This document shows positions 5,537-40,460 of a stretch of 40,460 nucleotides of DNA, piece by piece (position 1 is the first letter of the stretch; each line of letters starts with the position of its first letter). Under the pieces are notes generated by a model, which was not told where the DNA came from, searched no databases, and saw only the letters and a list, made by a program, of their open reading frames with translations. This DNA is from a virus. The translations under genes and the position numbers were made by a program. The stretch is from the UHGV virus genome UHGV-1390708. The stretch is one strand, 5' to 3'.

Positions 5537-5559
5537 AATTAAATCCTTATTTTTCTAAA

Positions 5560-5943
5560 TCAGAATGGGATGGAATCGTCGTATACAGGAGTGTTCTGCT
5601 GGTTACTACTTTGCTGCTGCGGGCCATTTCCTGAAGCTGCAAATCCAATCTTTGCATTCAGTAATTCAAGAGTGATTGATTGACCATTTTGCCCCTGATA
5701 AACATCAACCCTGATGTTTTCTCCGGTAATTTCCACAATGCCACCTTCAACAAGAACACTACGGTAGTAATCCGCTTGCGCTCCCGGCTTGGCAAATACA
5801 ACGGCGCTGTAGTTTGTCCATTCTTTCTTTTTTGTCTGGCGATCGTAATACTGAACGCCAGCACGGATGTTGAATCCGATATTTTCCCCGGCCTGAAACT
5901 CTCTTGCGGGCTTGTTTAGTCTTACAGTAATCGAATGTGCCAT
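5560..5943 (-). CDS. ssb: Single-stranded DNA-binding protein (SSB-like)
   Basis: Acidic C-terminal tail ending DDSIPF, the SSB hallmark; OB-fold-like body; start (MAHSITVRLNK) overlaps the erf stop (TAATG). The ORF track's 5' extension was rejected. Confidence 0.75.
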   Translation of the reverse strand: MAHSITVRLNKPAREFQAGENIGFNIRAGVQYYDRQTKKKEWTNYSAVVFAKPGAQADYYRSVLVEGGIVEITGENIRVDVYQGQNGQSITLELLNAKIGFAASGNGPQQQSSNQQNTPVYDDSIPF

Positions 5944-6548
5944 TAAGCAGCCGCTCCTTCTAATTCGTCTCGTCTGATGTTGTAAACGTCCTGCGCTTTG
6001 TGCTGCTCCGGTGTGCCTTCGAGCAGCTTCCACGCTTTGGCGAACGCCTGTTTAAGCTCTTCTACGGTGTTTTTCTGCATTGCTGCGTCAGTGAATGCTT
6101 TTAGAACCTGTTCAGGTGTAGGTGATGGTTTTGATTGCTTTGCTGCTGCGTTCTGCTGATGTTTATGCTCGTCTGTATCTGCATCTTTCGCATCATCTAT
6201 GCCGAACAAACCATTGAGGCAATACTTGCGTGCATAAGAGCTTGTAGCTCCCGTAACTTGTGCAGAATCCATTCCTTTCTTGCTTTCTTCCTCTCGTGCT
6301 AGTGCGGTTGCCGTATGACTGTTTTCGCCATCGGTAATAGTTGCCGTGGCTTTCACATAATACCGATCACCAATCAACACAACTTCATCGCTGATTGATA
6401 AAAACAGGCCATTCAGTAACGGCTTAACGCCTTCAAGAATGTCTTCGCAGCTTCTGTATTTATATTTTCCGAATGAGTTGTACTGATTCTTTGGCGCGTT
6501 CAGATTCTCCTGAATAGCTGCCAGTCTTGCGTAAAATTCTTTGCTCAT
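5943..6548 (-). CDS. erf: Erf-family single-strand annealing recombinase
   Basis: Motif 'NSFGKYKYRSCEDILEGVKPLL' resembles the ERF family; start set at the ATG (MSKEFYARL) 8 nt after the stop of the upstream small ORF; the track's longer form would begin at a TTG. Confidence 0.7.
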   Translation of the reverse strand: MSKEFYARLAAIQENLNAPKNQYNSFGKYKYRSCEDILEGVKPLLNGLFLSISDEVVLIGDRYYVKATATITDGENSHTATALAREEESKKGMDSAQVTGATSSYARKYCLNGLFGIDDAKDADTDEHKHQQNAAAKQSKPSPTPEQVLKAFTDAAMQKNTVEELKQAFAKAWKLLEGTPEQHKAQDVYNIRRDELEGAAA

Positions 6549-6558
6549 ATGATTGTTC

Positions 6559-6729
6559 TCAGAATGGACATGGCCCAAGGAAATAACGCTGATTTAATAC
6601 TTCAGTCTTTGCCGCATTTAAAAATACGCGAACACCTTCACGATCTCCCTTCTGGCGATACATTAACGCCTGCTGCGTGTACATGCGTCTCTGTAACTTG
6701 CTCTCCTTCACTGTGGTTGCAAGTGACAT
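6559..6729 (-). CDS. Hypothetical small protein (56 aa)
   Basis: Manual translation MSLATTVKESKLQRRMYTQQALMYRQKGDREGVRVFLNAAKTEVLNQRYFLGPCPF; strong AGGAG Shine-Dalgarno 7 nt upstream. Overlaps the 6638..6808 ORF in another frame. Confidence 0.35.
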   Translation of the reverse strand: MSLATTVKESKLQRRMYTQQALMYRQKGDREGVRVFLNAAKTEVLNQRYFLGPCPF

Positions 6730-6808
6730 GAATATCTCCTTCGTTACCGATTAATTCTTTCATCTGACGAATGAATTCTTCGTCTGACCAGTTATCTGTA
6801 AAACTCAT
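6638..6808 (-). CDS. Hypothetical small protein (56 aa)
   Basis: MSFTDNWSDEEFIRQMKELIGNEGDIH...; its ATG overlaps the kil stop (ATGA), suggesting coupling; sits where P22 has arf. Confidence 0.3.
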   Translation of the reverse strand: MSFTDNWSDEEFIRQMKELIGNEGDIHVTCNHSEGEQVTETHVHAAGVNVSPEGRS

Positions 6809-6957
6809 TTCCTGCGATACCACGGAAGGTTGATAGCTGATTTCATCGCTTTATTTGCTTCAATCCACATTTTTGAATCACCAATAAATCTGGCTATTAC
6901 TGCTTTGTTCTGTGCTGCACGAAGCATCTGGTGATTGATGGCTATTTCATTGCGCAT
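6805..6957 (-). CDS. kil: Kil-like host killing / cell-division inhibitor
   Basis: Manual translation MRNEIAINHQMLRAAQNKAVIARFIGDSKMWIEANKAMKSAINLPWYRRK; the 'A.FIGD' motif and position after cIII match lambda Kil as I recall it. Confidence 0.5.
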   Translation of the reverse strand: MRNEIAINHQMLRAAQNKAVIARFIGDSKMWIEANKAMKSAINLPWYRRK

Positions 6958-7073
6958 AATAAGACCTCAACTCTTTTCCATCCGTCACGTAATTTACGGG
7001 TGATTCGTTCAAGTAAAGATTCATTTAGTTGGAAGGCACCCATGCGAGCGCCTCCCGCGATTGCGTAAATCAT
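6942..7073 (-). CDS. cIII: CIII (FtsH inhibitor that stabilises CII)
   Basis: Manual translation MIYAIAGGARMGAFQLNESLLERITRKLRDGWKRVEVLLCAMK; central ESLLERITRKLRDGWKR matches the lambda CIII helix; AAGGAA Shine-Dalgarno upstream. Confidence 0.8.
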   Translation of the reverse strand: MIYAIAGGARMGAFQLNESLLERITRKLRDGWKRVEVLLCAMK

Positions 7074-7097
7074 GGGTGGTTCCTTATGTTGGTTTTA

Positions 7098-8066
7098 TTA
7101 GTAGGTTATTTTTGTTGCGAATACTTCGCCTTTTACGATGGCTGTTATGATATTTTTAGCAACATCTTCTGATGCGCCAACCTTGATAAGGTCAGCAAGT
7201 ATTTTGTTATTTACTTCTTTCCGGTGAGCTTTATCCTTTGCTCTACGCTCTTCTTCGTCCTTGATTCTTTTTTCTTCTGCTATTCTGGCTTGCTCTTTTG
7301 CTTCAGCCTCGCGACGGATTCGTTCAGCCTCCTCCTGTGCTTTTCTGCGTTCTGCTTCAATTGCTGCCTGCTTTTCTCTTTCAGCTCGTTCTGCTGCCTC
7401 TTTTGCTTCGCGCTGTGCTCGTTGCTCGGCTTCAATGCGTTCACGCTCTGCACGTTCCGCTGCGGCCTTAGCTTCTGCTTCTCGCCTTGCTGCTGCTTCA
7501 ATTTCGGCTTTTGCCTTTGCTTCGGCTTCTGCTCTGGCTTTCTCTTCAGCTTCTCTTTTTAAGCGTTCTTCATGCTCTCGCTTTTCCTGCTCCGCTTTGA
7601 GTCTTGCCTCTTCTCTTTGGCGGTCAAATTCGCGATCCATCAAAATCGCTATTTCATGGTCAGACTCAATTTGCTTTGCGAGAGCTTCAGCTGCTGCCTT
7701 AGCTTCTTCTTCGGCTTTAATCCGTGCCTGCTCCTCCTCATAATCAGTAAGAGGCTGGCGCGCCTTGGCTTTCAGTTCATCAAGGCGATCGCGCACTGTC
7801 TTGCGGTTGGCATCAATTAGCTTTGGAATTTCCTTCAGTTCAGCAACAAGGTCTTTGCCAAGACCATCGAGATATGTTTTCGTCTGCGCAACTTTATACG
7901 CCAGAGAAGCGATCTCCTTTCTGCCCTTTGCCGTTGTGATATCAGGCACAAAGGACATAACTTCACGTTCAACCTTTTGAAGGATTTCTTCAATCTGGTC
8001 GGCAGACTGAAATACAGTCATTGCATTTGCTTTTTCAATAACAACTAAATCTGTTACTTCACTCAT
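7098..8066 (-). CDS. Hypothetical coiled-coil protein with a long E/A/K/R-rich repeat region
   Basis: ORF 7098..8120 trimmed to the Met (MSEVTDLVV) preceded by GGAGG; about 170 residues of EAKA/ERAERE-type low-complexity helix. Confidence 0.7.
   Translation of the reverse strand: MSEVTDLVVIEKANAMTVFQSADQIEEILQKVEREVMSFVPDITTAKGRKEIASLAYKVAQTKTYLDGLGKDLVAELKEIPKLIDANRKTVRDRLDELKAKARQPLTDYEEEQARIKAEEEAKAAAEALAKQIESDHEIAILMDREFDRQREEARLKAEQEKREHEERLKREAEEKARAEAEAKAKAEIEAAARREAEAKAAAERAERERIEAEQRAQREAKEAAERAEREKQAAIEAERRKAQEEAERIRREAEAKEQARIAEEKRIKDEEERRAKDKAHRKEVNNKILADLIKVGASEDVAKNIITAIVKGEVFATKITY
7230..7750. repeat. Low-complexity coding repeat (GCT/GAA/AAG-rich) inside the coiled-coil gene
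   Basis: Reiterated gctgaagc / gcagaagc units visible in the sequence; they generate the spurious antisense ORFs listed in the track. Confidence 0.6.
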
Positions 8067-12556: not shown

Positions 12557-13929
12557 GACAGGATATCGAAGCGAGCGTTATCGGTGGCCTGCTGATTGGT
12601 GGATTAACTCCAACCGCCAGTGACGTTCTGGCAACGCTTGAGCCGGAAGCGTTTTCAATTCCGCTCTACCGGAAAGCCTTCGAGGTTATCCGCAAGCAGG
12701 CGCGAAACAGAAACCTAATCGACGCGCTGATGGTTGCCGAGGCGTGCGGAGAGGAGCATTTCACGTCAATCCTGATGACCAGCAAAAACTGCCCGAGTGC
12801 CGCAAACCTGAAGGGATATGCCGGAATGGTCGCGGATAACTATCACCGCCGTCTGGTGCTGGACATCATGGATGAAATGCGTGAACCAATTCAGAGCGGA
12901 ACCATCGACGCATCGAGTCAGGCGATGGATGAACTTGTAAAGCGTCTTTCAGCCATCAGAAAGCCCCGTGACGAGGTTAAACCTGTACGGTTAGGGGAAA
13001 TCATCACTGACTACACTGACACGCTTGACAGGCGTCTGAGGAACGGAGAAGAGTCAGATACCCTGAAGACCGGAATCGAAGAACTTGACGCTATCACCGG
13101 AGGGATGAACGCTGAAGACCTGGTGATTATCGCCGCTCGTCCTGGTATGGGGAAAACCGAACTGGCGCTAAAGATTGCCGAAGGTGTTGCAAGCCGCGTT
13201 ATTCCTGGTTCTGACGTCCGGCGCGGAGTATTGATTTTCTCGATGGAAATGAGCGCATTGCAGATTGCAGAGCGGAGCATTGCCAACGCCGGGAGGATGT
13301 CGGTTAGCGTACTGCGAAATCCTGCATCGATGGATGACGAGGGCTGGGCACGTGTTGCTAACGGCATGAGTCAGCTTGCAGATTTGGATGTATGGGTAGT
13401 CGATGCCTCGCGGTTATCGGTCGAAGAAATACGCTCAATCGCAGAACGGCACAAACAGGAAAATCCAAACCTGTCACTCATCATGGCGGATTATCTTGGC
13501 CTGATTGAGAAGCCGAAAGCAGATCGCAACGACCTTGCAATTGCTCACATCTCCGGAAGCCTGAAGGCGATGGCGAAAGACCTGAAAACACCGGTTATCT
13601 CCCTGAGTCAGCTTTCGCGCGATGTTGAGAAGCGACCAAACAAACGCCCGACAAACGCAGATTTGCGTGATTCAGGAAGCATTGAGCAGGACGCAGACTC
13701 AATCATCATGCTCTATCGGGAAGCGGTATATGACGAGAACAGTAGCGCCGCGCCATTTGCTGAAATCATCGTGACGAAAAACCGTTTTGGTTCACTTGGT
13801 ACGGTTTACCAGCGGTTCTGCAACGGACACTTTGTTGCATGTGACCAGGATGAAGCCAGACAGATTTGCACAACATCAAATGCACCCGCTGCACGTGGCA
13901 GACGATATGCACAAGGGGCTGACGTATGA
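12553..13929 (+). CDS. Replicative DNA helicase (DnaB family)
   Basis: Walker A '[11 protein letters not shown]'; DnaB-type N and C domains; follows the initiator gene with overlapping stop and start. Confidence 0.9.
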
Positions 13930-13955
13930 CCATCTACATCACTGAGCTAATAACA

Positions 13956-13984
13956 GGGGCTATTTACACAGTAGCCCTTTTTTA
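13956..13984 (+). terminator. Intrinsic terminator after the replication genes
   Basis: gggcta-N9-tagccc hairpin followed by TTTTTTAT. Confidence 0.55.
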
Positions 13985-14010
13985 TTGGATTAAGAACGAG
14001 GGGAATCCTG

Positions 14011-14223
14011 ATGGACACCGTTAACGGAATGTGTTCAGACGCACCGCGTGCCAAGAAATGTAAATGCGGAAAATCACCGACAATATTCGACATGGATAAC
14101 GGGTGCCAAATCTACTGCGCTAACCACGCTGCTGTGGCGGCCGCGAATTATCGCAGTGCGGTAACGGAGTGGAATAACCTGAAATCTGTTAGAGAGGGAA
14201 GTCATGAAAAAACTAACCTTTGA
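14011..14223 (+). CDS. Hypothetical Cys-rich small protein
   Basis: 70-aa ORF with CKCGK...CQIYCANH; GGGGAA Shine-Dalgarno. Confidence 0.5.
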   Translation: MDTVNGMCSDAPRAKKCKCGKSPTIFDMDNGCQIYCANHAAVAAANYRSAVTEWNNLKSVREGSHEKTNL

Positions 14224-14644
14224 AATTCGATCCCCAGCACATCAGCAAAACGCTATTCACGCGGTACAGCAAATTCTTCCAGACCCAACCAAACCAATCG
14301 TAGTAACCATTCAGGAACGCAACCGCAGCTTAGACCAGAATCGAAAGCTTTGGGCTTGCCTTGGTGACGTCTCTCGTCAGGTTGAATGGCATGGGCGCTG
14401 GCTGGATGCAGAAAGCTGGAAGTGTGTGTTTACCGCAGCATTAAAGCAGCAGGACGTTGTTCCTAACCTTGCCGGGAATGGCTTTGTGGTAATAGGCCAG
14501 TCAACCAGCAGGATGCGTGTAAGCGAATTTGCGGAGTTATTAGAGCTTATACAGGCATTCGGTACAGAGCGTGGCGTTAAGTGGTCAGACGAAGCGCGAC
14601 TGGCTCTCGAATGGAAAGCGCGATGGGGAGATCGGGCAGCATGA
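14204..14644 (+). CDS. ninB: NinB recombination protein
   Basis: 146-aa ORF MKKLTFEIRSPAHQQNAIHAVQQILPDPTKP... matches lambda NinB as I recall it. Confidence 0.9.
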   Translation: MKKLTFEIRSPAHQQNAIHAVQQILPDPTKPIVVTIQERNRSLDQNRKLWACLGDVSRQVEWHGRWLDAESWKCVFTAALKQQDVVPNLAGNGFVVIGQSTSRMRVSEFAELLELIQAFGTERGVKWSDEARLALEWKARWGDRAA

Positions 14645-15168
14645 CTATCAAATCAAATACGCCAGCACACGACAAGGACTGCTGGAGAACGCCGCTTTGG
14701 CTTTTTGATGCACTGGATATTGAGTTTGGATTCTGGCTGGATTCGGCAGCGAGCGACAAAAATGCTCTGTGTGCTCACTGGCTAACTGAGGCCGACGACG
14801 CGCTCAATTCTGAGTGGGTAAGCCACGGTGCAATCTGGAATAACCCACCGTACAGCAATATCAGGCCGTGGGTGGAAAAAGCCGCTGAGCAGTGCATACA
14901 ACAGCGACAGACGGTAGTGATGCTTGTGCCAGAGGATATGTCTGTCGGATGGTTCAGCAAGGCTCTGGAGAGTGTTGACGAAGTTCGCATTATCACTGAT
15001 GGACGGATTAATTTTATCGAACCATCGACAGGGATAGAGAAGAAGGGAAACAGCAAAGGTTCCATGCTGCTGATTTGGCGACCGTTCATCAGTCCTCGAC
15101 GGATGTTTACTACCGTATCCAAAGCGGCATTGATGGCGATCGGGCATGGCGTCAGGAGGGCAGCATGA
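14641..15168 (+). CDS. DNA N6-adenine methyltransferase (phage Dam-type)
   Basis: 'NNPPYS' catalytic motif; ATG overlaps the ninB stop (ATGA). The track's 5' extension was rejected. Confidence 0.8.
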
Positions 15169-31889: not shown

Positions 31890-33305
31890 ATGGCTACGTG
31901 GCAACAGGGTATTAATTCTGGTGGTTTTCTGGCTGGCATCGGTACGCAAAATGAGAATGCGCCAAAGGCAAGCGACATTAACGCAACGCTTGGTCTGATC
32001 CGCGAAAACAATGAACTGGCTCGCTCAGGTGCAAATAACGTTGGTCTGACCGCGTTACGTGGTCTGGCTGGAGTTGCTGATATTTATAAGCAGGAACAGC
32101 AACAGAAAGCGATTAATGCGTTCAATAAGGTTCATGCTGATGCATGGGCTTCTGGTGATCCATCGGGACTATTTAAGTTTGCCAAGGAAAATCCAGCGTT
32201 TGTTGCGCAGGCACAACAGGCGTTTTCCGGTCTTAATGAGCAGCAACGCAACGATATGGGCGATTTAGCCATGAGGGCTAACGTCGCTCTTTCTCAGGGA
32301 CCGGAAGCCTACAGTAAATTCATTACTGACAACAAGGACAGGTTAAATCGCGTTGGTGTTAATGCTGACTGGATGATTCAGACAGGTATCCAGAATCCAG
32401 AGCAGCTATCACACATGCTGACTACTATGTCTCTCGGTGCGCTTGGACCAGAAAAGGCGTTTGCTGTTCAGGACAAGATGGCTGGTCGTGAGATTGATCG
32501 CGGAAAACTTGCAGAGACAATCCGCAGCAATCAGGCTGGTGAAGCACTTCAGGCGAGAGGGCAAAACCTTTCCTATCAGTCAGCAATGACTGGGCACAAT
32601 ATCGCAGCACAACGCTTGGCTCTGGATCAGCAAGAGTTCGGGTTTAAGATGCAGCAAGCGCAGGAAAAGGCTCAGCAGTTGATTAGCGAAGCACCTAAGC
32701 TGTCAGTAAACATGGAAAAAGGCATCGAGACGGCTGTAAACAATGCTACAGCATCATCAAACTCAGCCAATTCTATGAGTGCGCTTGCTCAACAGTTCAG
32801 AGCAGAAAAACCAACGACAGGTTTGTTCGGTAACGCACAGAACATGTTCGCAAAACTTACCGGAAGCGATACAACATTGCGTGATTTGCGCATTCGCCAA
32901 AATGCCCTTGTTAACAGTCAGGTTCTTAAATTCCTACCTCCCGGCCCAGCAACGGATAAAGACGTTGAGATCGTTCGACAGGGTGCGCCAACTGACATGG
33001 ATAACCCTGAGACGGTCGCAAGATGGCTTGATGCAATGGCAAACCTTGAGCGACGAAACGCGCAGTTTAATGAGTTTAAAGCCGAGTGGATGAGCGCGAA
33101 TGGCAACCCTGGACAATCGCGTAATGGCGGTCAGATATTGGGGTTGGATGTTAAAAAAGGTGAATCATTGGGGAGTGCCGTTAAGCGGTATATGTCAATG
33201 AATACTGACGCAGCACCAGCGCAAGATTCGACACCTTCAGGAGAAACACCGAATCAGGTTGGATCATATACCTCAAAATCAGGCATTCAATTTACGGTGG
33301 AATGA
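31890..33305 (+). CDS. Ejection protein (P22 gp20-like)
   Basis: 471 aa, the same length and position as P22 gp20. Confidence 0.7.
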
Positions 33306-35428
33306 TGAAAGTAACTGCAAACGGTAAGACATTTACCTTCCCTGATGGTACGAGCACGGAAGATATTGGCACCGCCATTGATGAGTATTTTGCTGGTCAG
33401 GCTGTTCAGCAACAAACAGTTAATCAGGACAATAATGCACCAACACGGGAAGAACCATCATTGATGCAACAAGCTGGCGATTGGCTCACTGGTGGTCAAA
33501 GTGCAGGGCAAATTGCAGAACAGGCTGGTCGTGGTCTGGTAAACATACCATTTGACGTATTGCAGGGTGGCGCAAGTCTGATTAATGCAATCAGCCAGGG
33601 GCTTGGTGGCCCCAAGGTTTTGGATGATGTTTATCGCCCTGTCGATCGACCGACAGACCCTTGGGCGCAAGCCGGTGAAACAATTGGTGGGTATCTCCTG
33701 CCAATTGGCACAGCGGCAAAAGTTGCTGGAGCGCCAGCAAAGCTCGCAGGAGACATCGGTTCCGCAGGAAACATGATTGCAGGTTCTCTTGCTGATGCTG
33801 CAAATCAGGAGGGTGATTTTGCACAAAATGCTGCCATTAACGGTGGTATCAATATTGGTGCTCAAGGCGTTCTTTCAGGTGTCGGGCGCGTTATTGCGCC
33901 AAGGGTTTCACAGGCTCTTGGTGGTGCAGCACTGAATTCTGCTAATGATGTTTCTAGGATGGCAAAGTCAGGTGCTGGGCGTCAGTCAATTGCCAGTCAG
34001 GCCGCTAATGTGTCCGAAGATGTAGCAAAAGCGGCTGAGTCTGCTGGAATTGATATAAACGCATTAACACCAGGAATGCGATCTGGAAGTCGTGGAATTG
34101 CACAAGCCGAAGGCGCATTGGCATCAACACCTGGAATTGTTCAGGACGCCCATCAGGCAGCATTTAACGAAATATCATCAAAGTTAAGTCGAAACCTTGA
34201 TGAATTTGGGGCCACATCTGGAACGGCATCAGAAAAAAGTGCGGCTATAAAACAAAGGATTCTTCAAAATCTTGATCAGATGAAGGATGCCGAGCGCGCG
34301 GCATGGGATGACGTGCGGTCAACAATGCCAAATCAAAAAGCAAGAATGCTAAATGGTAATGCCGTTATTCAGGCAGAGCGATCTGCTGGCATACCGCTTA
34401 CTCCTGAAATGAAACAGTTTGTTCAGGCAAACAATCAAGGTGGAGTAACATTTGATGGCATGAAAGCATGGAGAGCGAAATTTGCTGATGCGGAGCAAAA
34501 ATATAAGCGTAGCGGAGAGGCAAATGCGGCAAGGAGAGCAGGGGAAATACGCCGGGCAATTACTGATGATATGCGCACAATGGCGGAAAACGGCGGATTT
34601 CTTGATGACTGGCAGAAAGCTAATGATCTGTCTAAAGCGAGGTTATCAGCACAAGAGAGTGCAGAGTCTGTTTTCGGGCGTGATTTGGCAACAGATGCAC
34701 TGATTACGAATGGAGTAAAATCCCTTCAATCATCGTCAGCTAAAGGTCTTAATGGTCCTGCTGGATTCCATTCTATGATCCGCGCGCTGCCAGAATCAGA
34801 GCGTGTTCCTGCTATTTCATCAATGTTGCAAGATGCTATCTCGCATGGTGTACGTGGTGGCAAAGCTGATGCAGCAGGAATTAACCATATCGCAGAGATA
34901 CTGACTCCACAAAATGTAAAAGCCATTAGCCGATATTCCTCAGAGCTTGGAAGAATTGCTGATGCATATGGCACTCTTGCAAGAGCAGCAGTGAAACCTC
35001 AGCAGTATATTGAAAGAACAGGTAGAACTGCCAATGTACTACGCGATCTGGATGCTGGTTTATCCAACGTCACATCAACAGTGTTAAATGCAATTGCCAA
35101 TTCAACATCAGGTGCCATTGTTGGTGGCGCTGGAGGAGGCATTGCAGGCGCTGCCGCAGGTGCTTTAGTTGGCGCTGGGTTAAAAGGCGCTGTATCTAAA
35201 ATTGCCACCACACGTAGTGGTCGGTATGCGATAGAGAAAGCAGTTCAGGAAGCAACTAAAGCAGTAAGAGCAGGCGGAAGCAAAGAAGCATTAGCGGCGG
35301 CGGAACGCAGATTTATGGCAAATAAGGCCGCCGTAAAAGCAATACGCGAGGCACTAGGAAACGAAGAGTTCCAGCGTTTAGCAAGGGCTGGAATTGTGGC
35401 ATCGCTTAGCGGAATGGCACAGGAGTAA
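33302..35428 (+). CDS. Ejection protein (P22 gp16-like)
   Basis: 708-aa Ala/Gly-rich protein, last gene of the ejection block. Confidence 0.7.
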
Positions 35429-35758
35429 TTAGTCATCCATGGATGGATTGAGCTTATCTCGTGTTGATGTGGCAATTTTACCAACATTTTTCAACCAAGA
35501 TTTTAAGAAGGATATGTCGTCCTTAATATCATGAATATCCTCATTCTTTATACGATCAACCTTATCCTCTAGGCTCTCTATAGAACGCTCAATGCTAGAC
35601 AGAGAGATTTTTAAGTCTCCTTGCTCACGTTCCAGTGAGGATTTGAGAGCACAATATTCGTTTTCTAGAATTCCTATTTTTTTTGTTAGAGAGTGCATTC
35701 GATACTCATACACCAAACTAGAAACGACTAATGCAGCCAACAGAAACCATTCAAGCAC
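35429..35758 (-). CDS. Small membrane plus coiled-coil protein (GTG start)
   Basis: ORF 35429..35974 trimmed to a GTG preceded by AGGAGG; this removes the overlap with the divergent gene. Transmembrane helix LEWFLLAALVVSSLVY then coiled coil; AT-rich. Confidence 0.5.
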   Translation of the reverse strand: MLEWFLLAALVVSSLVYEYRMHSLTKKIGILENEYCALKSSLEREQGDLKISLSSIERSIESLEDKVDRIKNEDIHDIKDDISFLKSWLKNVGKIATSTRDKLNPSMDD

Positions 35759-35788
35759 ACCAACCTCCTTAGTTTTGCGCAGGATACC

Positions 35789-36154
35789 ATGAAAAAAGTT
35801 AACATTGGAAACGTACCAAAAATGCTCGTTCCGCTCTTTGAGAGCGGTACAATTGTGTTTTGTAGAGACTTTCCAGAATGGCAACGCCTGCATCAAAAAC
35901 TTGGTGTGGACGTGCAGGACTCGGATGCCAACGGAGCGTCTCATACAATGAGCAGCGAGAATGGTGTTTTGCATGTGATAGGCGTGTTCAATGGCAAACT
36001 ATCTACTATTGCCCATGAGTGCGCTCACATGGCATTCGATATCTGCTCAAGGGTCGGTGTTGATGTTGAACCAGGAAGAGCCAACGAGACTTACTGCTAC
36101 TTAATGAGCAGGCTTGTTGAGTTCTGCGAGCGACATATCAAAAAGCCGGAGTGA
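35789..36154 (+). CDS. Putative small zinc metallopeptidase-like protein (HExxH)
   Basis: 121-aa ORF with 'IAHECAHMAFD' (HExxH) and a downstream Glu; no recognisable signal peptide. Confidence 0.55.
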   Translation: MKKVNIGNVPKMLVPLFESGTIVFCRDFPEWQRLHQKLGVDVQDSDANGASHTMSSENGVLHVIGVFNGKLSTIAHECAHMAFDICSRVGVDVEPGRANETYCYLMSRLVEFCERHIKKPE

Positions 36155-36170
36155 CCCGGCTTGATTATTA
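36136..36170. terminator. Bidirectional terminator between convergent genes
   Basis: Hairpin agccgg-agtgac-ccggct with T-rich tracts on both strands. Confidence 0.5.
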
Positions 36171-36347
36171 CTTTTTGCTGTCTGGAGTTCGCTTATCTAA
36201 TACCCAGCCATGACCTGGCTTTGTTGTTGGTGGAAGCCTTTCGTTGTCCTTGACGGTGGCAAAATTGTCTTTCTTACCGCCGCGCGGGCCAACTTCTTGG
36301 TATATTCCGCCGTTTTTTCCTGTGTTTTCACCTGGTTTTTTCGCCAT
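36168..36347 (-). CDS. Small basic Gly/Lys-rich protein (59 aa)
   Basis: MAKKPGENTGKNGGIYQEVGPRGGKKDNFATV...; GAGGT Shine-Dalgarno. The track's longer start was rejected. Confidence 0.5.
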   Translation of the reverse strand: MAKKPGENTGKNGGIYQEVGPRGGKKDNFATVKDNERLPPTTKPGHGWVLDKRTPDSKK

Positions 36348-36436
36348 GATATACCTCAACATGCACTCGTTATTGGGCGATTAAATATTGATCTCATTTT
36401 ATGAGTAGTCAATATGGTCCAAAAAAGGCAAAAATT

Positions 36437-36464
36437 AACCCACCTTCAGGTGGGTTTTTTGTTT
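36437..36464. terminator. Bidirectional terminator overlapping the 3' end of the Mnt-like gene
   Basis: aacccacc-ttca-ggtgggtt hairpin with T-runs on both strands. Confidence 0.5.
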
Positions 36465-36766
36465 AGCAGTTCTCTCAACTTTTCGTTCTGCTCTCTGAAC
36501 TTTTCCTGTATTTCTTTTTGCATGGCGATAACCTGGGCTTGAAGTTGAACTAGCGCATCAACATTTAGCGGAACCGAGACGCTGTTGATTTTATCTGCTA
36601 TTTCCCCGAGTGTATTTTCTGCATTCAAGGCATCTTCCAGTATCTGAACAATCTCTGAGTTCATTGATCTGCCGTTACGTTTGGCTCGTTCAGCTATAGC
36701 ATCCCGCATTCCTGCAGGAAGCCTGATATTGAACCTATCCATTTCATGACTAGGGAACTTGCTCAT
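36446..36766 (-). CDS. Mnt-like ribbon-helix-helix repressor (copy 1)
   Basis: 'FNIRLPAGMRDAIAERAKRNGRSMNSEIVQILEDAL' is an Arc/Mnt-type RHH motif; diverges from the Arc-like gene across an operator region. Confidence 0.7.
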   Translation of the reverse strand: MSKFPSHEMDRFNIRLPAGMRDAIAERAKRNGRSMNSEIVQILEDALNAENTLGEIADKINSVSVPLNVDALVQLQAQVIAMQKEIQEKFREQNEKLRELLNKKPT

Positions 36767-36801
36767 ATGACCTCAACGTAAAGATGTTCGCTAAACAATA
36801 G

Positions 36802-36857
36802 CACCAACTTGACATCAAAATAAATGGTGTTAAATTGGTTCTAGAACCAAGTTGGTA
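36802..36857. promoter_or_regulatory. RHH-repressor operator: 12-bp perfect palindrome inside a larger inverted repeat, with a TTGACA -35-like hexamer
   Basis: GGTTCTAGAACC (36837-36848) flanked by CACCAACTTG ... CAAGTTGGT; TTGACA at 36809-36814. Confidence 0.55.
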
Positions 36858-36877
36858 TCATTATAGGAGGATTACTT

Positions 36878-37051
36878 ATGAAAGATGTGCTTTACACAGG
36901 TCGTAAAAGTCAAAGTTTTCAGCTTCGTTTGCCAGCGCGAATGAAGGAGGAGATTAGACGTGTTGCTGAAATGGATGGAATTTCTATCAACTCTGCGATT
37001 GTGCAGCGACTGGCTAAAAGCCTGAGAGAGGAAAGAGCTAATGCCCAGTAA
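36878..37051 (+). CDS. Arc-like ribbon-helix-helix repressor
   Basis: Manual translation MKDVLYTGRKSQSFQLRLPARMKEEIRRVAEMDGISINSAIVQRLAKSLREERANAQ; GGAGG Shine-Dalgarno. Confidence 0.6.
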   Translation: MKDVLYTGRKSQSFQLRLPARMKEEIRRVAEMDGISINSAIVQRLAKSLREERANAQ

Positions 37052-37751
37052 AAATAGTGAAGCCCAGCAGTGCGCGAACACAAACTGGGCCTCTATGTCA
37101 GTAACCGTATGCAAGGAAACTAACATGAATATTGTAGCAAAATCAGATTACAACTTCCACGGAGTTGAGTTGGTGCCCACCCGTGATATGCATGGTGTTT
37201 GGTTTACATCATCTAATATTGCATCTGCACTTAAATACGCAAATAGTCGTGCAGTAACAATGATTTATAACAAGTATAGCGATGAGTTTAGCGCCGGAAT
37301 GACTCAGGTACTCGAAGTGAGTACCTCAGGAAATTATCGCAAAAAAGTGCGAGTTTTCTCACTACGCGGTGCCCACCTAATCGCGATGTTTGCTCGCACT
37401 CCGGTAGCCAAAGAGTTCCGCCGCTGGGTGCTGGATATTTTGGATCGGCAGGCAGAATGCTCACCGATTGCAAAACAGTTTACTGACGAAGAACTGGTTA
37501 ATCTCTGCTACTTACAATTGTGGATGGAGAAGAGTCAACAAATGTGCAAACACATCTACCCAGGAATGAAGCAAATTGGTTCTGAGCTTTCAGGAAGGAT
37601 TTACGATATTGCATATGAGACTCGCTACATGTCAGAAGAAACCAAGAAATCACTTCTTCGTGAAATGAAGAATCTTGATACCAACAATTTTGTCGTAAAG
37701 AACGCTCAGCCAATACTGGCAAAACTGCGCGGCGAGGAATGGATTCATTGA
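37041..37751 (+). CDS. ant: Antirepressor Ant (Bro-N-type)
   Basis: 236-aa ORF downstream of the Arc-like gene; Bro-N-like 'FHGVELVPTRDMHGVWFTSSNIASAL'. An alternative start at 37127 (MNIVAKS, AAGGAA Shine-Dalgarno) is possible. Confidence 0.7.
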   Translation: MPSKNSEAQQCANTNWASMSVTVCKETNMNIVAKSDYNFHGVELVPTRDMHGVWFTSSNIASALKYANSRAVTMIYNKYSDEFSAGMTQVLEVSTSGNYRKKVRVFSLRGAHLIAMFARTPVAKEFRRWVLDILDRQAECSPIAKQFTDEELVNLCYLQLWMEKSQQMCKHIYPGMKQIGSELSGRIYDIAYETRYMSEETKKSLLREMKNLDTNNFVVKNAQPILAKLRGEEWIH

Positions 37752-37770
37752 TTGGTGCGCCGGACGGCGC

Positions 37771-37801
37771 AAAAAGAAAACCGCCAGTGTGCTGCTGGCG
37801 G
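37771..37801 (-). terminator. Putative minus-strand terminator
   Basis: ccgccag-N7-ctggcgg hairpin followed on the minus strand by TTTTCTTTTT. Confidence 0.3.
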
Positions 37802-37839
37802 CCTATGTCACACCCTTACTACCACATAAGGAATGCCTA

Positions 37840-38565
37840 ATGACTTTTAAGAATGTAGCAAACATCGGATCCGTTGTCACGGATAAAACCATTGACAGCC
37901 AAAGTCTTCTGATGATGGTTAATGAAGCTCGCAAGTTATGTGGAGAGCCATCAGTACGTAACAACAAATTCATCGAGAAAATTGAGGATGAATTGGAGGG
38001 CGAGACCTACACAAAAAGTGTAGGTCGGAAAAACGGGGCTGACATTGATGTTATCTCCATGACTATCAAGCAGGCGCTTCGTGTTGCTGCTCGCGAATCT
38101 AAAGCAGTTCGCCGAACACTTGTAGACAAACTTGAAAGTATGCAGGAAGCACACATTAAAAGCGGTAAATCAGCGAGTGGACTTGTTGAGTATCGTCAAG
38201 CGCGAACATTGAAAATGACGGTTGAAGCTGTTACCAATCTGTTCGATCTGATGCCAAATCTTGCGCCTGAGGCAAAGCAGACTGCGGCAGCAAGCATAAT
38301 CAACCCGATCGTTGGTTTTAATGCAATACCTCTTCCAGCAATAGAAGAGCATTACTACTCAGCAGGGGAGGTTGCAGAGCAGCTTGGAGTAACGGCCAAC
38401 AAGATTGGTCGCATTGCTAACGCAAACAACCTCAAAACTGAGCAGTACGGCAAGTTCTTCCTAGATAAATCTGCGCATTCCAGCAAACAGGTAGAGGCGT
38501 TCCGCTACAATGCGGAAGGTGTTAAAGCACTACAACACCTGATTCATGGGAGTAATGTTGCATAA
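37840..38565 (+). CDS. Antirepressor-like protein (KilA-C-like C-terminus)
   Basis: ORF 37789..38565 trimmed to MTFKNVANIG (AAGGAA Shine-Dalgarno); the C-terminus 'YYSAGEVAEQLGVTANKIGRIANANNLKT' resembles KilA-C-type domains. Confidence 0.55.
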   Translation: MTFKNVANIGSVVTDKTIDSQSLLMMVNEARKLCGEPSVRNNKFIEKIEDELEGETYTKSVGRKNGADIDVISMTIKQALRVAARESKAVRRTLVDKLESMQEAHIKSGKSASGLVEYRQARTLKMTVEAVTNLFDLMPNLAPEAKQTAAASIINPIVGFNAIPLPAIEEHYYSAGEVAEQLGVTANKIGRIANANNLKTEQYGKFFLDKSAHSSKQVEAFRYNAEGVKALQHLIHGSNVA

Positions 38566-38786
38566 TGGCAAAGAAAAAATATGGCATTATGCCGCCAAGA
38601 ATCAAAGGAAGAGCCAGGGTAAAAGGCGATGCTGGAAGGTATCACATTCTTGGAGTTCTGTGGCATGAGAGAGCTTTAATTTTAAGTAGACCTCATGGGT
38701 ACATTGAAAAGGTATCTATAGATAGAGTAGAGATTCTTCCCCTTACACCTGAAGAAGAAGAAACGTACGGACTTTTTGATAACTAA
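38565..38786 (+). CDS. Hypothetical protein (73 aa)
   Basis: ATG overlaps the upstream stop (TAATG); AT-rich; followed by a terminator. Confidence 0.5.
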   Translation: MAKKKYGIMPPRIKGRARVKGDAGRYHILGVLWHERALILSRPHGYIEKVSIDRVEILPLTPEEEETYGLFDN

Positions 38787-38794
38787 CCAACTAA

Positions 38795-38817
38795 ACCCGC
38801 TTAATCGCGGGTTTTTT
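38795..38817 (+). terminator. Intrinsic terminator
   Basis: acccgc-ttaatc-gcgggt hairpin followed by TTTTTT. Confidence 0.65.
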
Positions 38818-39058
38818 CTTTTCTAAGGATATCAGCCACAACTTCTTTTACTCGTTCCGAGATTAATGAGGCCAGCCTCTCTTCTTCATCACGATACCCG
38901 CTTACAGGTGATGGTTTGGAGAGTGATTCTTCCATCGTAGCCACAATTTCGGAATTGATAGACCTGTTATTCATTTTTGCACGTTGCTTAATCTTAGCGT
39001 GCAACTCGTGCGTAAGCCTCAAGTGGAACTGCGCCTCATCGTATTTGCTGTACATCAT
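38801..39058 (-). CDS. mnt: Mnt repressor (copy 2)
   Basis: 'NNRSINSEIVATMEESLSKPSPVSGYRDEEERLA' resembles P22 Mnt ('NGRSMNSE...SKPSPVTGYRNDAERLA'); start at the Met preceded by GAGG. Confidence 0.75.
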   Translation of the reverse strand: MMYSKYDEAQFHLRLTHELHAKIKQRAKMNNRSINSEIVATMEESLSKPSPVSGYRDEEERLASLISERVKEVVADILRKEKTRD

Positions 39059-39190
39059 CAATGCCTCACCAAATGGGTGGAATGGCATCGTAAAACCTAC
39101 TGTACAAATCAACAATCGTACCATTTCGGTATGCAACAAACACCAACCGTAGCCATGCTGCGGCGATTCCTTGTATCTGGAGCAAATTAA

Positions 39191-40460
39191 ATGACAGATT
39201 CAATAAATGCCAATGTTGTAGTAAGCATGCCTTCGCAACTCTTCACTATGGCGCGTTCTTTTAAAGCGGTTGCCAATGGCAAAATTTATATCGGAAAAAT
39301 TGACACTGACCCGGTAAATCCTGAAAACCAGATTCAGGTTTATGTAGAGAACGAAGACGGTTCTCACGTTCCTGTTTCGCAACCAATCATCATTAACGCT
39401 GCTGGTTACCCAGTATATAACGGACAGATTGCCAAATTCGTAACTGTGCAAGGTCATTCGATGGCTGTTTATGATACGTACGGTGCGCAGCAGTTCTATT
39501 TTCCTAATGTGCTGAAGTATGACCCTGACCAGTTCCGGCAGGAGCTAGAGAGAGAGTTTGCAAGCGGGGCATTCCCTGAAACAGTAAAGTATAAGTATGG
39601 ATTACCATCTGTTGTTGATGGTGCCGTATACAGAACTGTTCAGGATAAGCTTGATGATTTTGTGTTCCTTGAGGATTTCGGAGGAAAAGACGACGGAGGT
39701 ATTACTGATAACTCTTTAGCATTTAAGAAGGCGTTTGCATCAGGTGCTAAGAAAATTTATCTCAGAGGATCTGGTGTTTATGCCATGGCTACTCGTGATA
39801 TTGAGTTGCCTGCCAGGTATGAAATTATAGGTAATGCAAAAAATCCAGAGATTAAATATCTAGGTTCTGATTCAACCTTCACTATGTTTACCCTTACAGG
39901 GTCTGGCCCGGCTGCTAGTCAGTGGAAACAGGGTGGCATCTTTAGGGATGTGATCATTTCATCTGATACAGTAATTAACTGGATGGTTTGCCGACATGTC
40001 CAGAACTTAGATTTCGACAGAGTGTACTTTTACAACTCAAGAACTTTAATGAACAACTATCACTATGTTAACTTCTTTAGATGTGAACGTTGGTCGAGCG
40101 GATTTGAAGGCAGATCAGACCTTAACACAGTAAATTTCATTAGCGAGTCTCCAAAATTTTTGATGTGCTTTAGCTCAAACTCACCTATAGATGTTTGGGA
40201 TACAGCAGACCTTAGTATCACTTTCTGCACCTTTTTTGCGGGAGATTATGCAGTACAGACTAAAGTTACTCTGGTATCGCCAACAGCGCTGGACCAATTT
40301 GCTGGATACCAGGTATTTATATCCAACTCTGTTTTTGATGCAGTTTCTGGTAGCGCATGGTTACTTAACGGCATTGCGTACGGATCTATCATTGGTAACT
40401 TTGTGTCATCTGGGCGTGATGCGACAGCTTCCGGTGCTGTTGTTGATGGTGTCCGTTCAA
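39191..40460 (+). CDS. Tailspike protein (3' end truncated by the window)
   Basis: N-terminus 'ANVVVS...[35 protein letters not shown]...VLKYDPDQ' matches the P22 tailspike head-binding domain from memory; the downstream domain differs from P22; no stop before the window end. Confidence 0.85.

Follow-up and report, generated by a model that had tools for sequence, protein, structure and literature searches.

What are the two genes that stand between the antirepressor gene ant1 and an mnt homologue in the virus genome UHGV-1390708, and do they belong to the surrounding immunity module or do they form a unit of their own? This genome (40,460 nucleotides (nt), called the window in the following) is that of a temperate P22-like (Lederbergvirus-type) phage, and the two open reading frames (ORFs), encoding 241 and 73 amino acids (aa), span positions 37840 to 38786. 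Both are real accessory, non-structural genes that are absent from P22. An earlier note on this DNA had seen in them an independent two-gene cassette; this observation is largely right and its interpretation partly so, and the proposed architecture is wrong. According to the best-supported reading the region is probably an enlarged immunity-I (immI, “ant moron”) module of a P22-like phage, in which a second antirepressor-family gene is co-transcribed with arc and ant1, gated by an antisense RNA of its own that resembles sar, and followed by an optional small ORF. The operon appears to hold two antirepressor-type genes, each with its own predicted antisense RNA, and among the new points the conservation of the second antisense unit, from which such an RNA is predicted, is the most useful. 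The finding makes the annotation of a region known to be hypervariable more precise; both genes are already present in public phage records as uncharacterised entries, and current understanding stands.

The 241-aa protein and its place in the ant operon

The larger ORF (37840..38565, plus strand) is preceded by the Shine-Dalgarno (SD) sequence AAGGA 9 nt upstream of its ATG and encodes 241 aa; the 242 aa given earlier for this otherwise correctly placed ORF had included the stop codon. The designation antirepressor-like, which had also been proposed, is borne out by a full-length profile match, by identity to an antirepressor of phage P1, by a structural model with its fold matches and by the domain partners of its relatives. 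Residues 1-241 align with profile positions 1-264 of 264 in PHROG 1726 (“anti-repressor”, E 9.7e-102). Between residues 14-105 and residues 112-206 of P1 Ant1 the identity is 73% (95 aa, E 2e-43); this P1 segment is also present in Ant2, and according to the annotation in the P1 record AF234173 both Ant1 and Ant2 counteract the C1 repressor by forming a complex with it. The homology to the characterised P1 antirepressor is limited to this N-domain. The AlphaFold (AF2) model, based on an alignment of 34 sequences and with a predicted local distance difference test (pLDDT) value of 72, is built from the N-domain (~15-105; P1-Ant type, ~14-105), a helical linker and a winged-helix C-domain (~170-236). 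Fold matches of the whole model in BFVD are viral proteins annotated as antirepressor, KilA, KilAC or Rha, with E-values down to 3e-8. In a set of 116 distant relatives, the proteins with the same C-terminal half combine it with one of the domains Bro-N (26), Rha (23), KilA-N (13), ORF6N (11), AntA (9), ANT (4) or P22_AR_N (3). This modular make-up of two domains together with domain exchange is that of the classic domain-shuffled antirepressor superfamily. Full-length homologues with 60-62% identity are found in Stx2a phages, where they are annotated as antirepressor and in one case as Roi.

The family is widespread, and its 1969 members retrieved from a large protein collection are all named “hypothetical”. 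There are 880 relatives among representative sequences at 50% identity, the protein matches 183 phage records and 447 stretches of IMG/VR, and the gene occurs in 91 of 5426 complete E. coli genomes (~1.7%). In a literature search neither this protein family nor tandem antirepressors in P22-like phages turned up as the subject of a publication. Synteny was inspected in 80 viral loci, and in nearly all of them the gene lies ~90 nt 3' of an ant1-like gene that itself follows arc and a divergent gene for a ribbon-helix-helix (RHH) protein. This order of arc, ant1 and the 241-aa gene holds across P22-like phages and other phage types, and the gene is a widespread syntenic partner of arc and ant and not one half of a two-gene cargo, as had been supposed. 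In some loci the divergent RHH gene is replaced by a gene for a CI-like helix-turn-helix (HTH) protein with a peptidase S24 domain. Such CI/LexA-like divergent regulators with HTH and peptidase S24 were observed left of the arc-like gene in Escherichia phage JEP4 (L001, 3093-3662) and in the loci L086 (1238-2011) and L088 (1142-1864); the ant operon can therefore come under a cleavable (SOS-type) repressor in relatives. A separate observation concerns the locus L074 (4001-5955), where ~1 kb behind a truncated 241-aa gene (residues 1-197) the C-terminal half occurs once more, with 48% identity, apparently a recombinant or an insertion within the gene.

In the window the operon starts from a Pant-like promoter on the plus strand (TTGACA-16-TAAATT, 36809-36836), which scored 10/12 with TG in the promoter scan. 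Its -10 element and start are overlapped by the perfect 16-bp palindrome TTGGTTCTAGAACCAA (36835-36850; promoter and palindrome together 36809..36850), of which the window holds no second copy. The first two cistrons on the plus strand are the arc homologue (36878..37051, 57 aa, Pfam Arc, E 8e-12) and ant1 (37125..37751, 208 aa), an antirepressor with the Pfam domains Bro-N and P22_AR_C that matches PHROG 245 (anti-repressor Ant) with an E-value of 1e-53. Between ant1 and the 241-aa gene no sigma-70-like promoter and no terminator was detected on the plus strand by a consensus scan, which is not proof of absence, and therefore the 241-aa gene is most simply read as the third cistron of Pant. 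It is most likely co-transcribed with arc and ant1. The rightward operon ends with an intrinsic terminator (38793..38814) that consists of an 8-bp stem followed by TTTTTTCTTTT; its hairpin extends over the 3' end of the oppositely oriented mnt. This is the strong downstream terminator already recognised in the earlier note, and loci that lack the 73-aa ORF have it just as those that contain this ORF.

Once the RHH repressors release Pant, arc, ant1 and the 241-aa gene would be transcribed together. The 241-aa protein would then most likely use its P1-Ant-like N-domain to bind a prophage repressor, of the CI/C2 type or another, and inactivate it, and in this way the set of repressors that the phage can neutralise would become wider. 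CI/C2-type repressors are the usual target class of Ant proteins, as was established from P22 Ant. The main repressor of the window phage (9865-10602) is a protein with CI/C2-type HTH and S24 domains, which makes it a plausible target. Antirepressor modules decide the lytic switch of prophages, and through them the induction of one prophage can be tied to that of others in the same cell. If the proposed reading is true, a second antirepressor-family gene, uncharacterised and labelled “hypothetical” by PGAP, is a common component of enterobacterial ant operons, and the P1 Ant-like domain links the 241-aa family readily to experiment.

Several results weigh against an antirepressor function of this protein. 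No Pfam family was found at E <= 0.01 (the best was HTH_31 at 0.12), a search of NCBIfam gave nothing above noise, and direct comparison with P22 Ant revealed no detectable similarity. No member of PHROG 1726 is known to have been tested. Many of the loci are closely related, so their counts do not stand for independent events. Finally, the C-domain resembles a DNA-binding winged helix of the MerR/excisionase type and one homologue with 60% identity is annotated as Roi, so that a role as DNA-binding regulator is possible.

This last point leads to the alternative that survives best, although we consider it unlikely: the 241-aa protein would be a DNA-binding regulator of transcription or lytic growth (Roi/KilA/Rha-like), and its placement in the ant operon would give shared timing only. 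The C-domain of the model superposes on the MerR-type winged helices of RacA and BldC (probability ~1.0, template modelling (TM) score ~0.63 on the target), and Foldseek against the PDB returned for the model only local matches of this MerR-like type with weak E-values. Excisionase and HTH models match the protein weakly, some homologues besides the Roi-annotated one are labelled ‘repressor’ or ‘transcriptional regulator’, and the label ‘antirepressor’ is in this superfamily mostly inherited annotation and not tested function. Such a regulator would, however, have an N-domain that is highly identical to the experimentally studied P1 Ant, it would stand constantly behind ant genes under the control of Arc/Mnt, and it would be subject to a sar-type control that in P22 is dedicated to an antirepressor. 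The profile and structure searches suggested in the earlier note gave antirepressor-family matches for the 241-aa protein and nothing informative for the 73-aa protein. No relative of either protein was found by sequence search in the PDB, and PADLOC reported no match to a defence system.

The predicted antisense RNA of the 241-aa gene

The gap between ant1 and the 241-aa gene contains hairpins at 37755-37804, which had been taken for a pair of terminators closing a cassette on its upstream side. In plus-strand orientation AAAAAGAAAA comes after the first hairpin (37755-37770) and CCTATGTC after the second; these are A-runs or non-U sequence, and neither hairpin is an intrinsic terminator in this direction. 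A terminator was called on the minus strand only (37804..37778), where a 10-pair stem (hairpin CCGCCAG-N7-CTGGCGG) is followed by the T-rich tail TCTTTTTGCG. The hairpins stop leftward transcription and no promoter of the 241-aa gene's own was found, and the idea of an independent cassette flanked by terminators is not supported. Inside codons 5-14 of the 241-aa gene the scan detected an antisense promoter with upstream TG (GTGACA-17-TGcTACATT, 37852..37880, minus strand). Promoter, minus-strand terminator and their conservation predict a sar-like antisense RNA (37768..37845, minus strand) of ~75 nt, a length that assumes a start ~7 nt below the -10 element and thus an extension from ~37845 to ~37768. 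The predicted RNA is complementary to the leader, the SD sequence and the start codon of the 241-aa gene, and its predicted fold comprises a 5' stem-loop and the terminator hairpin (z = -2.8). Translation of the 241-aa gene would probably be damped by this RNA, which would arise from the promoter within the gene's own first 14 codons, end at the upstream hairpin and pair with SD sequence and start codon, as P22 sar does for ant.

The conservation of the promoter was examined in 18 distinct homologous 5' coding ends. Invariant in all of them are the -35 element GTGACA, the 17-bp spacing, the TG and positions 1, 2, 4 and 6 of the -10 element. The encoded residues vary at the same time: codon 5 is N/T, codon 6 L/V, codon 7 A/S/T (always NCA) and codon 12 V/S/A/F/N/I (always NNT). 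Third-codon positions that fall in the -35, -10 and TG elements are invariant in 5/5 cases, whereas elsewhere in codons 2-20 13/14 of them vary. Predictions made from the protein only, namely that codon 7 should be ACA for Thr and TCA for Ser, held in the Morganella, metagenomic and Pectobacterium loci (L086, L088, L089). The RNAs predicted in 12 diverged loci have a length of 63-81 nt. In L076, L086 and L089 the terminator persists with a stem of unrelated sequence, and in L008, L041 and L083-L085 it persists next to a different upstream gene. In every context with the 241-aa gene inside an ant operon the antisense unit is conserved, and a subgroup located outside ant operons (L043, L044, L057) is devoid of it.

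Upstream of it, ant1 possesses the counterpart in the form of an apparent orthologue of P22 sar. This predicted RNA of 70 nt (37055..37124, minus strand) is encoded in the spacer between arc and ant1 and folds into the same two stem-loops as P22 sar, a 5' stem-loop and a long terminator hairpin (z = -6.1 vs -5.3 for P22). Its promoter TGGAAG-17-TGcTACAAT (37159..37131, minus strand), which was read from the sequence, lies inside codons 3-12 of ant1, with the extended -10 element TGcTACAAT in codons 3-5. Rfam gave nothing at this spacer. If the interpretation of the second unit is correct, sar-type antisense control is not a peculiarity of P22 ant but a portable unit that travels with the gene downstream of it.

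A more far-reaching version, which we regard as improbable, would have two antirepressors of different specificity in one operon, each behind its own cis-antisense gate. The second would be directed against repressors of prophages that are unrelated and reside in the same cell, such as P1/P7-like C1 or heteroimmune lambdoid repressors, and the 73-aa protein would act as a modulator. If this were true, a P22-like phage could cross-induce other elements in the same cell or break their immunity.

The existence of the second antisense RNA itself has also to be weighed. An Rfam scan of 36000-39500 found neither sar nor any other family, and alignment of the gap before the 241-aa gene with the arc-ant spacer of P22 gave no real homology and no sequence similarity to P22 sar. 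The compared loci are related to each other, and their numbers do not represent independent cases. The residues V13 and T14, whose codons overlap the -35 element, are invariant also as amino acids, and because of this a part of the promoter conservation could be protein-level. This last point speaks for a quite improbable explanation without an sRNA gene: promoter and terminator on the minus strand would serve as a conserved linker for recombination or would halt transcription that reads leftward out of mnt, and the resemblance to a promoter would be a by-product of a conserved N-terminus of the protein. The same block of hairpin and promoter occurs, as at a mosaic boundary, at the junction with a non-homologous gene in phage SPN3UB, and RNAalifold with 11 predicted antisense RNAs supported the terminator helix alone, with no shared covarying fold in the 5' part. 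The 5' part of an antisense RNA is, however, expected to track its target and not to covary internally. Moreover, it is third-codon positions and codon choice that are conserved and not amino acids, the invariant bases are exactly those relevant for sigma-70 (TA...T, the upstream TG, GTGACA and the 17-bp spacer), and the terminator is retained even where its stem sequence differs.

The 73-aa ORF and the flanking regulator genes

The second ORF (38565..38786, plus strand; PHROG 4977, E 5e-54) was described correctly before as an overlapping AT-rich frame: its ATG overlaps the TAA of the 241-aa gene by one base (TAATG), and its GC content of 0.396 (0.478 for the window) is the lowest of any gene in the region. 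It is far rarer than its neighbour. Among 5.8 billion (5.8e9) proteins just 8 clusters at 90% identity were found; their identity is 80% or more throughout, each of them comes from E. coli or Salmonella, and the single phage record containing the gene is that of JEP4. Wherever present, the ORF is directly 3' of the 241-aa gene. It is missing in L011, L017-L021, L034-L040 and phiKp_30 with a clean junction; in loci of this kind the stop codon of the 241-aa gene is followed by the same terminator within ~30 nt, and therefore the 73-aa ORF is a clean indel of ~210 bp that is separable from the 241-aa gene. It would represent a later add-on, translationally coupled to the 241-aa gene.

The encoded protein consists of a basic N-terminal tail, an invariant core and an acidic tail. 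A low-confidence model shows the core as a small SH3/Tudor-like β-barrel, for which Foldseek against the PDB gave only generic SH3/Tudor-like barrels. Pfam and NCBIfam returned nothing significant, and no search yielded an informative match. In the alignment of homologues residues 20-73 are identical throughout. The first ~20 codons (38565-38625) contain A-rich tracts that are read in 3 frames among homologues via frameshifts, and the N-terminal tail is either unconstrained or slippage-prone.

That both ORFs form an autonomous two-gene moron with its own signals and with terminators on both sides, inserted as a unit, is very improbable: the strong downstream terminator, the absence of both genes from P22, the location in a known hotspot of gene flux (PMC2629481) and the homologue that stands alone on its strand in L089 would fit such a unit, but the upstream hairpins terminate on the minus strand only, no promoter on the plus strand was found, the 73-aa ORF comes and goes independently of the 241-aa gene, and the latter is syntenic with arc and ant1 across phage types. 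Of the features of a moron, presence/absence polymorphism among syntenic relatives and the downstream terminator were observed, and no plus-strand promoter or terminator was found between ant1 and the 241-aa gene by the consensus scan.

Two genes for Arc/Mnt-type proteins flank the operon. The left one (36446..36766, minus strand, 106 aa) was assigned to the Arc/Mnt family of RHH proteins by Pfam (Arc, E 1.6e-20) and by synteny. It is divergent from arc and occupies the position of mnt in P22, and its product shares 54% identity with P22 Mnt in the N-domain only. This protein is presumed to be the maintenance repressor of the ant operon. The palindrome at Pant, whose position is that of the P22 Mnt operator, is a candidate operator for it. 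Over 36439-36720 this gene shows 95.7% DNA identity to ‘hypothetical protein’ genes of many Stx1/Stx2-converting phages, and therefore regulators of ant operons are exchanged between P22-like and Stx phages.

The right one (38801..39058, minus strand, 85 aa) is the mnt homologue, assigned by Pfam (Arc) and by the JEP4 annotation ‘regulatory protein mnt’. Its product and P22 Mnt share 48% identity over 73 of 83 residues (E 1e-24), a full-length similarity that takes in the C-terminal tetramerisation region. Transcription of this gene converges with that of the ant operon and diverges from that of the tailspike gene, which starts at 39192. In the gap of 133 bp between mnt and the tailspike gene (39059-39191) no clear palindromic operator or strong promoter was found, just a weak 15-nt inverted repeat with its arms 44 nt apart. 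The loci L046 and L048 carry a complete second set of mnt, arc and ant between the 73-aa ORF and the tailspike gene (~5550-7200), which suggests that the tailspike-proximal mnt of the window is the remnant of a second immI copy left after later deletion in a tandem of such modules.

In the annotated P22 genome the order is mnt (minus strand), Pant/Pmnt, arc, sar, ant, t_ant and gene 9. The interval between ant and gene 9 holds the terminator alone, and mnt is located left of arc and divergently transcribed. The slot between ant and tailspike is thus empty in P22, as the earlier note states, but mnt is upstream of arc there and not downstream of ant. An insertion between ant and mnt relative to P22 is not supported either; an Mnt homologue abutting the tailspike gene was already described for the ant morons of phages L, ST64T and ST104 (PMC2629481; bioRxiv 10.1101/2020.10.05.325894). 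The interval between gene 16 and the tailspike gene is known as the “ant moron”, for which 10 types in rapid flux were distinguished in 16 genomes (Villafane et al. 2008, PMC2629481). In the window this interval, which follows the gene-16 homologue (33302-35428), is filled by three small genes shared with P22, the 106-aa gene, arc, ant1, both ORFs, the terminator and the mnt homologue. An ORF of 121 aa (35789-36154, plus strand) encodes a protein 100% identical to P22 sequence at 13861-14223, where NC_002371 annotates no coding sequence, and the product of a 64-aa ORF (36168-36362, minus strand) is 98% identical to P22 sequence at 14243-14434. A further ORF of 181 aa on the minus strand (35429-35974) overlaps the 121-aa ORF and matches P22 with its first 87 residues only.

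Comparison with known immunity modules

One of the closest known systems is the P22 immunity-I region, reportedly described by Sauer in 1983 and by Liao and Wu in 1987. In both phages the module lies between gene 16 (or its homologue) and the tailspike gene, and the window likewise comprises a divergent RHH repressor gene, arc, an ant gene with a sar orthologue and an operon terminator before the tailspike gene. In P22 the sar RNA occupies 15021-15090 and its promoter Psar 15097-15125 lies inside ant, which starts at 15091; the second antisense unit of the window repeats this geometry with its promoter in the first codons of the target and its terminator just upstream of the ribosome-binding site. 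In contrast with P22, the window adds a second antirepressor-family gene, a second antisense unit that is unrelated in sequence, and the 73-aa ORF. Its true Mnt homologue is found beside the tailspike gene and another RHH protein takes the place of Mnt, and the 241-aa protein is unrelated to P22 Ant.

With the immI region of P1 (c4 antisense RNA, icd and ant, the last encoding Ant1/Ant2) the window gene has in common the shared N-domain segment and the control by antisense RNA, which is predicted in its case. P1 Ant differs by an extra N-terminal part and by a C-domain of the Pfam ANT/KilAC type, whereas the window protein has a different, winged-helix C-domain. Furthermore, c4 is a trans-acting RNA processed from the same transcript, while the RNA predicted here would be a convergent cis-antisense RNA.

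Escherichia phage JEP4 (MT740315, JEP4_15-19) contains the genes for the arc-like protein, Ant1, the 241-aa protein (annotated as ‘KilA protein’), the 73-aa protein, Mnt and the tailspike in identical order, with 97% DNA identity and 99-100% protein identity to the window. It differs in having a C2-like repressor gene left of arc instead of the 106-aa RHH gene. In Salmonella phage SPN3UB (L004, 3641-4781), a siphovirus, arc and a 94% identical ant1 are followed by the same hairpin, an ORF6N-domain gene and a gene for 90 aa. The antisense promoter TCGACA-17-TGcTACATT lies inside the gene next to ant1, and the short gene overlaps the stop codon of that gene, just as in the window, but the sequences of this SPN3UB pair and of the pair described here are unrelated. 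From this comparison the antisense unit would seem to be a mobile joint at which one second antirepressor-type gene can be exchanged for another.

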